NCBI GenBank assembly: GCA_010093605.1
Contig: MU004184.1
Coordinates: forward strand, 2,118,801-2,182,800
Origin: Lophium mytilinum
Lineage: Eukaryota
DNA: 64,000 nt
Reading direction: 5' to 3'
The position numbers were made by a program, and so were the translations under genes. Positions 14,917 to 18,145 of the stretch are shown here, piece by piece. Every line of letters begins with the position of its first letter. Within the stretch, counting starts at the first letter, position 1. The notes beneath the pieces were generated by a model that was not told the DNA's origin, made no database searches, and saw only the letters and a program-made list of their open reading frames with translations.

Positions 14917-16401
14917 TATTCCTAACGGAAACCACCGGCATTCACATCCGAGCTCAATAGCGTCGAAAGTTCCTCAAGCTCTTAATAAGGAAAAATGAGG
15001 ACATGAACAGCGTGAGCTCGGAGGACGGCGTCCTAGACGTGACGTTCTCTTCCAGGCATGAGAAGGCGCGGGGGGGAAACCAGAATCACGAACTAGTGAG
15101 ATTCGATCGCTCTCTTGCTCGAACATATGGCTCTAACGTCCTAAGGTCGAGTGGCTCCGTTGGCGTCTTCAGGAAATGGTACCCCTAGGCGAGCAAACGA
15201 CACGTGAAGAACTTGAAAAGTTGACGAAGACCGCGGAGGATGTGATAGGTGTGAGATTTGTCTTGAATCATCAGGTGGGTATGTCTGGAGACCGAGTTTG
15301 CAGCTAGTAAGTTCAATTCGTTCTTTTGTTGCAAGCTCTAACATTGTAGCTCAACTGGCTTTTTCAGCTGGTCCAGGGACTCGGACAGCACTACCGGGAA
15401 AGCATGCTCAAACGGGGCCTGAGTGACCCATTGACGGTTGAAACTTTGCACATGGAGGTGTCTAGAGTGGACATAAAGTTCACGTTCAATCACAAAAATA
15501 TGGACTGGCTTTGGAAACTCCAGCTTGTAAGCTTGAATCCTTCTCTTGTTGGTACGTGTCGTTCTGATGTACGCTAGCACGAATGGTTTATCGAAGAACT
15601 TCGGAATATCGGAGCTAAGTACGACCATTGCTCGTCAGTTTCACTTGTAAGAAGCACCTGCAAATCTCTGATCGCAGTCCGGACCTTAAAACACAACGTC
15701 ACGTTGGGATAGAAGGAATTCCAGCCTCTGACGACGGCTACTTCGCTACCGAATGTGGAAATGGAAGATCACCAAGGTGCCATAGTGCTAAATCCCGATC
15801 AGCTTAGATGCTTGAATATTACCCGTATGTGGTTGGATTGGAGCTACTCCCTGATCTCTCGTTAGTATGGTGGTTGGAGGGTACGATTGAGCTGCATTTC
15901 TCTCTTGATCGTGTACTATGCATACCGTAGTTGCTTATATCATCTCTACGAGATGAAAGCAAAAAGCAGAGATGACTGCTACCAAGCTTTCAGTCTTTCA
16001 TCCATTCAAAAGCTTCTAGACTACAGTGCGTGACGTAAAAAACACATATTTTCAAGATCTATTCTTCGAATAGCATCATGTCCGAAAATATGATGGTCCA
16101 AATTGCTCACTCGACACCACTGTCAGAGGTAGCCTGGTTTCCAAAAAGCCAGGTAGTCAAGAGATAGTCAAGCGCTCGTGTAACACATGCAAGCAAGGCA
16201 CCTCATGGGGCCACTACACACAGCTCACGAGGTCAACGCTCCCTGTGTGGAATGCATCCACACATGCTCGTGCAACCTAACCGCATGCGTCACCCACAAA
16301 GCTTCCTTCACACGTCCATACAGCACCCCGCCAATTAATTCCCTCACCATTAAAAGGAGCCCATCTATGTACACTCTTATATTTCCGCAGCACCCCAAAT
16401 C

Positions 16402-16647
16402 AGCTCAGTGGCGCAGCGGCAAGTAACCCAACTTCCTCTCTTCAAATACTAGGCTAACAAATCGCAGGAAGCGCGGTATGTTGCCCTTTGTTCGAGGTCT
16501 TGGGTTCAATCGACTGACGGTCCATCTAGCCGGGCTCATATATATACATATATTGTGTTACCCGGAGGACAACGGTATGTCGCCTGAACTTCTCGGACCT
16601 AGATCCCCCGCTGATCTCAAATTCAGGATCGAAACCGTTCTGAGCTA
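16402..16647 (+). tRNA. Initiator tRNA-Met(CAT) split by three spliceosomal-type introns and one canonical tRNA intron
   Basis: Exons 16402-16418, 16468-16475, 16530-16540, 16560-16574, 16627-16647 join to AGCTCAG TG GCGC AGCGGAA GCGC G CCGGG CTCATAA CCCGG AGGAC AACGG ATCGAAA CCGTT CTGAGCT A (72 nt). All four stems pair perfectly. Initiator signatures: A1:U72, three G-C pairs 29-31/39-41, A54 and A60 in the T-loop (AUCGAAA). Introns: 16419-16467 GCAAGT..GCTAAC..CAG; 16476-16529 GTATGT..ACTGAC..TAG; 16541-16559 canonical at 37/38; 16575-16626 GTATGT..GCTGAT..CAG. Confidence 0.93.
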
Positions 16648-16657
16648 TCAAGCTATC

Positions 16658-16664
16658 TTTTTTT
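16658..16664 (+). terminator. Pol III oligo-T terminator (T7) after tRNA-iMet
   Basis: TTTTTTT begins 11 nt after the discriminator A. A further T6 run follows at about 16670. Confidence 0.8.
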
Positions 16665-17252
16665 GGCAATTTTTTGGGGTTTGTGGCACACACATATGAC
16701 TCACGGCATGTTTTATTTTTATTTTTTGAAGGTGGAGTGGATTTGAAGCTAGCGAAGGTGGATCTAGTGGGTAGAAAATGGGCAGAGATAAAGTGGCAGT
16801 CTAGGGCCGTTTGAGGTGGCGGAGGCCCATTAACTTTGTCAAATCTTGTCGTTTGTATAGTTTTGATAATGTACAGAGGAACTTAAGCTGTGTAAGGTAA
16901 AAGTGTGTATCTGAATCAAACGGTGGAGAAAAGAACCACAGGCTCGTGGTCTGCCACTTTTGTTCAAGGGAGCCTGATCGGGATAGGATTCGCTAAGGCA
17001 TGCGTTTCGTTTTCACCAACGCGGATTGTATAGAAATTCACCTATTTGAACAACTCACAAGATTCGTTGGACTCAACAAGGCGTTTTCTGCATGAAGGAC
17101 GGCTTTGTTTTTGAGTGCACATACATCTGGTCCGCGACCAGAGATGCTACTCATTTCATAGTACATTTGAGTCTATCCAGCCTACTAACGCTCCTAGTAC
17201 GGCTGGTGAGAAGCAAGACCGCTCTGTGATCTTCCGCCTCGCTCAACTAGGT

Positions 17253-18145
17253 CTAATTCACTTGCGTGCCATATCCCCTAATCCCCTCCGCAAACGCCCA
17301 ACTCTGGTTCTCCAGCTTCTCGTTCTCCTTCAGTTCCACGCCCTCCTTCGTGATCACCGCAATCGAGTACTTGTCCATGCTCCTCGCATCCCGATAGAAC
17401 AGCACCTTCATAGACTCCTTGACCAACTCCACCGCCTGCTCCTTCGTCACGCTCGCAACCGTCGCCTCGTCCGGTACCGTACGCCTGAGAATCGGCTGCG
17501 CCAAATGCGCTCCGAATCCCGTCGCAAGCGTTGGGCTTGAGAACGTTGTGCCTAGCAGATCCGCGCTCGCGAGGAAGGGCTTATTCTCGCCATCCAAGCC
17601 AGCCACCAGCAGGTGGTTCCACAGCGGGTTGAAGTCGGAGCGGCGCTTGTACATGACCTTGGAAAGATACGTGTGCAAGTTCTTGGCGTGCAGCTGGGCG
17701 TCGGGGGACTCCTCGGCGTAGTTCTCGCGGATGTCGAGCGAGGAGAGTAGGCGGTCGAGGTATTGCATGTCCGAGACGTCGCCGCCGAAGCCGACAACGG
17801 CGCGTGTGTTAAATTTGCGGAGACGCTTCACGTCGGTGAAGCGGGCGAGGGAGCCATATGATGCTGCGAGAGTGTTAGTTTGTATTCAATGGAAAATGCA
17901 GATAGATTGGCGTGCCTAGGTTGTCCGCTGCGATCACTACGCCGTCCTTAAACTTCACTGCTATGACCGAGGTTCCTGTTACGATCGGTGATTGTGTGTG
18001 CGTTGTGGGGCCAGAGGTCTGTAGGAAGGAGTTGCTGTATGCGCCGTAGACGTCGTCTCGCGGCTGGGAGTTTGTTAATGGATGGAGAGGTAGGCTAGAG
18101 GTTTGAGATGCTTACACGGCCCCAAGCTTGAGGAAGGTGATTCAT
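17253..18145 (-). CDS. PRE4: 20S proteasome subunit beta-7
   Basis: Exons 18145-18116, 18063-17916, 17863-17253. Motifs [71 protein letters not shown]. Intron 2 is GC-AG. Confidence 0.96.

Follow-up and report, generated by a model that had tools for sequence, protein, structure and literature searches.

A five-piece initiator tRNA-Met gene in Lophium mytilinum with one canonical and three mRNA-type introns

The DNA considered here is a stretch of 64,000 nucleotides (nt) from contig MU004184.1 of Lophium mytilinum (positions 2,118,801 to 2,182,800 of the forward strand), and we refer to the whole of it as the window. At window positions 16402-16647, on the plus strand, lies an initiator gene for methionine transfer RNA (tRNA-Met) that is split into five pieces by four inserts. 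It is confirmed as a sequence feature. All coordinates are window positions. The order of the pieces and the inserts between them were taken by direct reading, and the inserts were cut out in silico by coordinates. Insert sites are given as the two tRNA positions on either side.

Exon 1 (16402..16418, 17 nt) covers tRNA positions 1-18 and holds the 5' strands of the acceptor stem and the D-stem along with part of the D-loop. Insert 1 (16419..16467, 49 nt) follows in the D-loop at 18/19. It is of the GC-AG kind, with donor GCAAGT, branch site CTAAC (the A is 11 nt from the 3' end) and acceptor CAG. Exon 2 (16468..16475) is a micro-exon of only 8 nt. It supplies positions 19-26, which are the remaining D-loop, the 3' strand of the D-stem and G26. 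Insert 2 (16476..16529, 54 nt) sits at 26/27 and is GT-AG, with donor GTATGT, branch site CTGAC (A 13 nt from the 3' end) and acceptor TAG. Exon 3 (16530..16540, 11 nt) gives positions 27-37 with the 5' strand of the anticodon stem and the anticodon CAT. Insert 3 (16541..16559, 19 nt) is at the canonical 37/38 site. It is an ordinary tRNA intron without GT-AG ends, and ARAGORN models it as i(38,19). Exon 4 (16560..16574, 15 nt) provides positions 38-52. Insert 4 (16575..16626, 52 nt) breaks the T-stem at 52/53 and is again GT-AG, with donor GTATGT, branch site CTGAT (A 13 nt from the 3' end) and acceptor CAG. Exon 5 (16627..16647, 21 nt) completes the gene with positions 53-73, including the T-loop AUCGAAA, the 3' strands of the T-stem and acceptor stem and the discriminator A. 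All of these features are on the plus strand.

When the four inserts are cut out by coordinates ARAGORN calls a 72-nt tRNA-Met(CAU). When the 19-nt insert is left in and only the other three are removed, it reports the identical tRNA with an intron at 38. The hallmarks of a eukaryotic initiator are A1:U72, three G:C pairs at 29-31:39-41, a CAU anticodon and an AUCGAAA T-loop. The joined product has them all, with G29-31 paired to C39-41, A54 and A60 in the T-loop, and 21/21 stem pairs formed. Neither ARAGORN nor Rfam sees a tRNA in the unspliced DNA. ARAGORN finds 0 genes in the unspliced locus and likewise 0 in the entire 64-kilobase (kb) window. Rfam has 0 matches at the gathering score over the 64 kb and no tRNA match at E<=10 within 16300-16760. 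The weak Rfam matches near the locus (SAM-II at E 3.3 and a ribozyme fragment at E 8.9) were rejected as chance.

The preliminary description of this locus, made from the letters of the window, had claimed that exons of 17, 8, 11, 15 and 21 nt join into a flawless 72-nt initiator cloverleaf. It placed inserts of 49, 54 and 52 nt at 18/19, 26/27 and 52/53, and expected that removing the introns would give a perfect initiator tRNA that standard finders miss on the unspliced DNA. These claims stand, and the positions and lengths of the inserts are reproduced both by coordinates and by the blind alignment described below. The description spoke of three introns in one place and of four in another. 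Both counts are correct, since there are three mRNA-type introns and one canonical one.

Two controls bear on chance. All GT/GC...YTRAY...YAG candidates of 35-110 nt were collected, 187 on the plus strand and 173 on the minus strand, and joined in chains of one to three. Removal of 490 such chains in silico, each followed by ARAGORN, gave a tRNA from one chain only, and that chain is 16419-16467, 16476-16529 and 16575-16626. The other control was a spliced alignment by dynamic programming that ignores splice signals and charges a flat cost for any long insert. It recovers the same four inserts, with a one-base shift where the flanking bases are identical.

Three of the four inserts look like introns of messenger RNA (mRNA). 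Their ends are donor and acceptor pairs of the U2 type (GCAAGT..CAG, GTATGT..TAG and GTATGT..CAG), and each has a YTRAY branch site whose A precedes the 3' end by a short and nearly constant distance (11, 13 and 13 nt). The mRNA introns next door offer a direct comparison. The adjacent genes encode two proteasome beta subunits and contain three introns of 52, 52 and 48 nt, each with its branch A 12 nt from the 3' end and with donors GTAAGC, GCACGC and GTACGA. Removing these introns leaves open frames of 262 and 264 amino acids, the same length as the homologues. The tRNA inserts, at 49, 54 and 52 nt, fall in the same size class. The preliminary description had read a pre-mRNA donor, a branch site and a YAG in each insert and had equated their size with that of introns in neighbouring protein genes. 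We read the same signals in all three, with the branch A at 11-13 nt, and the sizes agree. As a side observation, the second intron of the adjacent proteasome gene (17864-17915, minus strand) is GC-AG with the weak donor GCACGC. Together with the GCAAGT donor of insert 1 there are two GC-AG introns within 1.5 kb.

The 19-nt insert belongs to another class. We looked for the bulge-helix-bulge (BHB) motif using one fixed 3-4-3 geometry, in every register that gives the same product and with the other inserts either kept or removed. The 37/38 insert is BHB-like, with a central helix of 3/4, an outer helix of 5 and an inner helix of 4, and only 0.3% of 20,000 random placements reach the threshold. 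Inserts 1, 2 and 4 have no BHB motif in any equivalent register (three registers each for inserts 1 and 4) by this fixed-geometry test, which could miss very relaxed or alternative folds. Their best registers have a central helix of at most 3/4, and the outer and inner helices are both 0. The canonical eukaryotic position at 37/38 is occupied by the 19-nt insert only, and the others are at 18/19, 26/27 and 52/53. Because the BHB motif occurs only at 37/38 and the other three inserts have mRNA-type signals, we argue that the gene has one ordinary tRNA intron and three mRNA-type introns.

It is worth considering whether these introns could belong to an invasive family. Introner-like elements are multi-copy invasive introns of Dothideomycetes (described in the available part of PMC4457414). 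None of the inserts recurs in the 64-kb window or in the 83 metagenome loci introduced below, and the longest chance match is 14 nt. Since there is no other copy in the window or the 83 loci, the inserts are not a recently spreading element.

Genes of the same design were then sought in metagenome contigs. The search pattern required an anticodon arm followed, with or without a short gap, by a T-loop shifted by 40-70 nt; no splice signal was imposed. It returned 83 loci (given L numbers here), 26 of which were taken as eukaryote-type initiator genes. The other 57 are bacterial formylmethionine tRNA genes with a chance match downstream, unrelated sequence, an uninterrupted tRNA of another type (L001) and tandem tRNA-like genes. 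From the 26 we dropped L041 (uninterrupted), L075 (cut at the contig end), L080 (aberrant 5' part) and the duplicates L062, L077 (= L003) and L029 (= L021). This leaves 20 distinct complete interrupted initiator genes in addition to the window gene.

The 21 genes hold 43 inserts that fall into two clean classes. The short class has 6 inserts of 8-20 nt in the 37/38 zone, and a GT-AG register is possible in 0/6. The long class has 37 inserts (35 distinct sequences) of 48-59 nt, a range in which the lengths of 21 are constrained by design because the retrieval pattern forced an insert between positions 41 and 53. The remaining 16 lie outside the forced region, were free in length and measure 49-55 nt. 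Long inserts occur at 13 positions: 15/16, 18/19, 19/20, 26/27, 29/30, 41/42, 44/45, 45/46, 46/47, 51/52, 52/53, 53/54 and 64/65. A GT/GC-AG register is possible in all 37, where 0.84 would be expected from the number of equivalent registers. The donors are GT in 36 cases and GC in one; the acceptors are CAG (18), TAG (17) and AAG (2). In 37/37 there is a YTRAY whose A precedes the 3' end by 10-14 nt, and BHB-like geometry is seen in 0/37. The sites used in the window gene are used elsewhere too. Position 18/19 of insert 1 is occupied in L052 by a GT-AG intron, position 26/27 of insert 2 is also occupied in L057, and near insert 4 at 52/53 relatives carry introns at 51/52 and 53/54.

The inserts of the relatives were placed by signal-blind alignment. 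The 64/65 intron of the L003 family was recovered only when the L057 product served as the alignment query. A relaxed enumeration of G[TC]...AG chains combined with ARAGORN was tried and dropped in favour of the blind alignment; it gave many alternative matches per locus because ARAGORN tolerates odd loops.

Some of the loci set aside have features of their own. The T-arm and 3' acceptor half of the intact initiator gene in L041 recur in decayed form about 40 nt downstream of it. L080 is an L003-type copy in which the 3' two-thirds and two introns survive and unrelated sequence stands in place of exon 1 and the first part of the D-loop intron; the copy is a pseudogene that has been truncated, or else the assembly is chimeric here. 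Eleven contigs (L002, L006, L025, L032, L033, L034, L037, L043, L053, L055 and L056) carry an uninterrupted initiator-like tRNA with a second tRNA-like unit close behind it. The second unit has the same AUCGAAA-type T-loop as the first, and the genes are not of fungal type.

There are 14 distinct 72-nt products among the interrupted genes. In these 294/294 stem cells are paired, and the checks for initiator hallmarks are true for all. Compensatory double changes have occurred in 10/21 stem pairs, including acceptor-stem pairs whose two sides are up to four introns apart. The orthologues L003, L004 and L070 allow exons and introns to be compared directly. Their exons agree at every position (72/72), their introns show 78-86% identity and the splice signals have been preserved. 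Five of the six flank comparisons between these three loci give 65-75% identity and the sixth gives 97%. At a per-site identity of 83%, 72 sites would all stay unchanged with a probability of about 1.5e-6. The preliminary description had named exons decaying as fast as the inserts, with the signals lost, as the pattern that would speak against a functional gene, and what is observed is the opposite. Judged by these comparisons, the exons are under purifying selection.

Intron sets differ between genes with the same exons. The window gene and L049 have identical exons, and the only intron of L049, at 53/54, is unrelated to those of the window gene. Exons are likewise identical in L003 and L057, and their intron positions are wholly different. 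Introns at the sites common to the window and L052 or L057 are 57% alike, against a mean of 56% for random 51-mers. L003, L004, L070 and L071 have introns at 19/20, 44/45 and 64/65, L057 at 15/16, 26/27 and 41/42, and L052 at 18/19, 29/30 and 44/45, all on a mature tRNA that is the same or nearly so. Different intron sets on near-identical tRNAs suggest paralogues or rapid intron turnover. The contigs of L003, L052 and L070 carry the same dataset prefix.

The gene has the signals of a transcription unit for RNA polymerase III (Pol III). We used the consensus sequences TRGYNNARNNG for the A box and RGTTCRANTCC for the B box as printed in the available part of PMC7954030. In the unspliced DNA there is an A box at 16409..16419 (plus strand) that matches at 7/7 informative positions, and insert 1 starts with the final G of this box. 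The B box at 16626..16636 (plus strand) matches at 8/10 informative positions, and insert 4 ends with the G that opens the box. Both boxes are intact in the DNA because inserts 1 and 4 each supply the G that the insertion displaced. The distance from A-box start to B-box start is 217 nt. A T7 run (16658-16664, plus strand) begins 11 nt downstream of the gene and is followed by a T6 run (16670-16675), and both are terminator-like. No run of T4 or longer is present inside 16402-16647. With promoter boxes and a T-run terminator, the host gene looks, at the sequence level, like a Pol III gene. The relatives are similar. Taking relatives and window together, a T5+ run begins 3-16 nt past the 3' end in 20/21 interrupted genes, and the longest T run in any of the 37 long inserts is at most 4. 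Upstream, the window gene has a TATA-like TTATAT (16377..16382, plus strand) about 25 nt before tRNA position 1. It was found by script match and is a candidate site for TFIIIB. The upstream regions of the related genes are A/T-rich, with TATA-like and CAA-rich stretches.

Some introns resemble B boxes as well. The best intron match in the window is a B-box-core-like TGTTCGAGGTC in insert 2 (16489-16499, plus strand, 7/10), and a second B-box-like stretch in the same insert (16502-16512) was noticed by eye. Among the 35 distinct introns the GTTCGA core occurs in 6, against a shuffle mean of 0.18, and 0/2000 shuffles reach 6, a post hoc count since the core was spotted by eye first. The printed B-box consensus is matched at 9/10 in 4 of the 35 (shuffle mean 0.38), and 1/2000 shuffles reaches 4, which is also post hoc. 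The four introns are in L013, L082, L018 and L039, represent three lineages and exceed the tRNA's own box at 8/10. The window background for a 9/10 match is 16 sites in 128 kb. With another B-box consensus scored at >=8/9 the introns are not enriched, as 314/2000 shuffles reach their count. These matches are hints that some introns may carry Pol III promoter elements. The fission-yeast intron in the U6 small nuclear RNA (snRNA) gene carries that gene's B box, and in comparison only some of the relatives' introns here hold a good one. L049 is also among the loci listed for B-box-like intron motifs. The unusual donor GTTCGT makes up 11/37 donors (L003, L004, L070 and L071 at 44/45 and 64/65; L013; L082; L052 at 29/30), and with the preceding exon G it reads GGTTCGT, which is B-box-like. 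It is the donor of 0/28 intron candidates defined by open reading frames in the window.

We argue that this is very probably a working nuclear initiator tRNA-Met gene of a filamentous ascomycete, that it is probably transcribed by Pol III, and that its transcript would be matured by the spliceosome, acting on the three U2-type introns, together with the tRNA endonuclease, acting at 37/38. In this scheme Pol III would transcribe a unit of about 250 nt from the intact A and B boxes and stop at the T7 run. The spliceosome would excise the three introns of 49-54 nt by intron definition and join the 8-nt micro-exon en route. The D and T arms could fold only after the spliceosomal introns were gone. 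The endonuclease and ligase would then remove the 19-nt intron at 37/38, and RNase P and RNase Z would trim the ends after folding. Excision at 37/38 and end trimming are placed after spliceosomal splicing because both need the folded D/T body. We infer the spliceosomal step from splice signals that every relative has kept. Sequence analysis establishes how the gene is built, which signals it has and that they are conserved, that purifying selection acts on the exons and that the three inserts lack the endonuclease motif; the order of the steps and the choice of polymerase we infer. The recurrence of the same gene design in many environmental fungi implies that this tRNA would depend here on the spliceosome.

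One can imagine that the spliceosome plays no part at all. All four inserts would then be protein-spliced tRNA introns cut by the endonuclease at a relaxed BHB, as in Thermoproteales or Cyanidioschyzon merolae. Introns in the D-arm and T-arm of multi-intron tRNA genes are indeed known from archaea and C. merolae (available part of PMC3978253), and one of the four window inserts, the one at 37/38, really is of BHB type. However, the motif is missing from the other three in any register, whether or not the remaining inserts are removed, and 0/37 long inserts are BHB-like in the single fixed 3-4-3 geometry. The GT/GC-AG ends of 37/37 long inserts, their branch sites at 10-14 nt and their lengths of 48-59 nt play no part in endonuclease splicing. 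We consider this explanation extremely improbable. It is also very unlikely, in our judgement, that the locus is a decaying or silent copy, in which intron-like insertions hit a former initiator gene while functional tRNA comes from intact copies elsewhere. There is no mismatch in the 21 stem pairs of the window gene and no hallmark is lost. Exons stayed at 72/72 where introns diverged to 78-86%, with the small chance probability given above, and compensatory changes connect the 5' half of the tRNA with its 3' half across the introns. Every lineage has retained splice signals and terminators, and no further copy of the inserts occurs in the window or the 83 loci. What can be said for a silent copy is that L049, with identical exons, has one intron only, that L041 has none, and that the related locus L080 has an aberrant 5' part.

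The main alternative for the transcription step is a host transcript made by RNA polymerase II (Pol II). Pol II would make a capped non-coding transcript, the spliceosome would remove the introns, and RNase P and RNase Z would cut the tRNA out. Co-transcriptional splicing is normally tied to Pol II, and the joining of micro-exons is known for Pol II transcripts. The TATA-like element at -25 would suit this route too, and polymerase use cannot be read directly from the window. The termination signals argue the other way: the T5+ run 3-16 nt beyond the 3' end in 20/21 genes, the lack of a T4+ run within the window gene, and the limit of 4 T in a row across the 37 introns. The A and B boxes are intact at the DNA level. 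A Pol III transcript is not a bar to splicing either, as U6 shows that such transcripts can be spliced (available part of PMC5855946). We regard the Pol II route as unlikely, and prefer transcription by Pol III followed by the spliceosome and the endonuclease.

Several points weigh against our preferred interpretation. An uninterrupted initiator gene elsewhere in the genome could supply the tRNA, making this copy redundant, and among the environmental relatives uninterrupted (L041) and single-intron (L049) initiator genes do exist. An 8-nt exon between introns is demanding for the spliceosome, and an A-to-B spacing of 217 nt is demanding for TFIIIC. The donor of insert 1 is of the rare GC type. 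It must be noted too that the 26 initiator loci were chosen by eye from the 83 and are a pattern-biased sample of environmental contigs, and that the pattern forced one insert of 29-59 nt between positions 41 and 53 in each gene. The intron of L069 was placed by a regular expression guided by GT...TTAG, and the blind alignment was 3 nt off.

The closest known case is the mRNA-type intron found in U6 snRNA genes of fission yeast and other fungi (Tani & Ohshima 1989, 1991, cited in the available part of PMC5855946). As in U6, there are short GT-AG introns with branch sites in a small, highly conserved non-coding RNA gene transcribed by Pol III, on the description in that part of the paper. It also reports that U6 intron positions differ between species, and proposes reverse splicing as their origin. 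Unlike U6, the host here is a tRNA, a molecule outside the spliceosome for which a dedicated, protein-only splicing pathway exists. Also unlike U6, up to three such introns and a canonical tRNA intron are found in one 72-nt RNA. Spliceosomal introns are known as well from ascomycete ribosomal DNA and from U1, U2 and U5 snRNA genes (Bhattacharya et al. 2000; Takahashi et al. 1993, 1996; listed in the available part of PMC5855946). Going by that source, they share with the present introns a home in conserved RNA regions of non-coding ascomycete genes and a recognition from sequence signals. They differ in that other polymerases and RNA classes are concerned, and tRNA is not on the list in the available part of PMC5855946. 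A further parallel is the fungal U3 small nucleolar RNA (snoRNA). According to the accessible text of PMC5832005, a computational analysis, the splice and branch motifs of its introns are normal, branch site and acceptor are 15 nt apart on average, and the intron positions are lineage-specific, including in Pezizomycotina. U3 introns cluster in one 5' hairpin in that account, whereas the introns here use 13 positions spread over the D-loop, anticodon stem, variable loop and both T-stem strands.

BHB introns are also found in disrupted tRNA genes, and in tRNA genes with several introns, of Thermoproteales, DPANN archaea and Cyanidioschyzon merolae (PMC3978253, as far as available). Like the genes described in that text, those here have up to five pieces, micro-exons and introns at non-canonical positions, and are missed by standard finders. 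Unlike those introns, which are cut by the endonuclease, the long inserts have the BHB motif in 0/37 and spliceosomal signals in 37/37. The canonical eukaryotic tRNA intron at 37/38 is removed by the tRNA splicing endonuclease and ligase (available part of PMC10946435). The insert at 16541-16559 fits that class, as described there, in position, size and helix-bulge geometry, and differs by sharing its gene with three introns of another kind. No tRNA with a spliceosomal intron was found in the literature searched, with subscription journals and supplements beyond reach. Introns of mRNA type are known in Pol III non-coding RNA genes; a tRNA as their host would be new and unexpected.

There are consequences for annotation. 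ARAGORN with default settings finds 0/21 of the interrupted genes in unspliced sequence, and it does find the one intact gene. In intron mode it reports 5/21 as tRNA-Met with a misplaced 37/38 intron, mis-types 2/21 and misses 14/21. The five are the single-intron genes L020, L021, L023, L031 and L068, where it puts an intron of 40-53 nt at 37/38, the wrong place. Public annotations may contain initiator genes that are mis-modelled in a similar way. Since ARAGORN misses or mis-models such genes, fungal genomes may be wrongly reported as lacking initiator tRNA genes or as having odd ones.

The beta-6 proteasome neighbour has one match at 97% identity and is 93-88% identical to proteins named from Lepidopterella, Cryomyces, Aulographum, Sphaceloma, Trypethelium and Diplodia. 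Its best named relatives are Dothideomycetes, and Ascomycota is the most frequent phylum in the Atlas look-up. A bolder proposal is that, throughout a clade of ascomycetes (Dothideomycetes and kin), no initiator tRNA gene is free of mRNA-type introns. Some of these introns would be kept as removable Pol III promoter elements, as in fission-yeast U6, since their consensus B box is better than the deviant T-loop box of the initiator itself. We offer it as a tentative speculation that is probably not correct in full. If every initiator gene in the clade is interrupted, all translation initiation there would depend on the spliceosome acting on a Pol III transcript.

Nuclear splicing is divided in textbooks between the spliceosome, which serves mRNA and a few snRNA, snoRNA and ribosomal RNA genes, and the endonuclease and ligase, which serve tRNA. 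A spliceosome-dependent tRNA would cross that line, and would do so for the one tRNA needed to start any protein. Two unrelated splicing machineries would act in order on one 72-nt RNA. If real, the introns at 13 positions of this RNA would form a dated series of gains, losses or slides, which could be used to test reverse-splicing and proto-splice-site models of intron origin. If real at the RNA level, the gene would be a natural Pol III substrate with micro-exons for studies of cap-independent, intron-defined splicing, and it would tie translation initiation in these fungi to splicing capacity.

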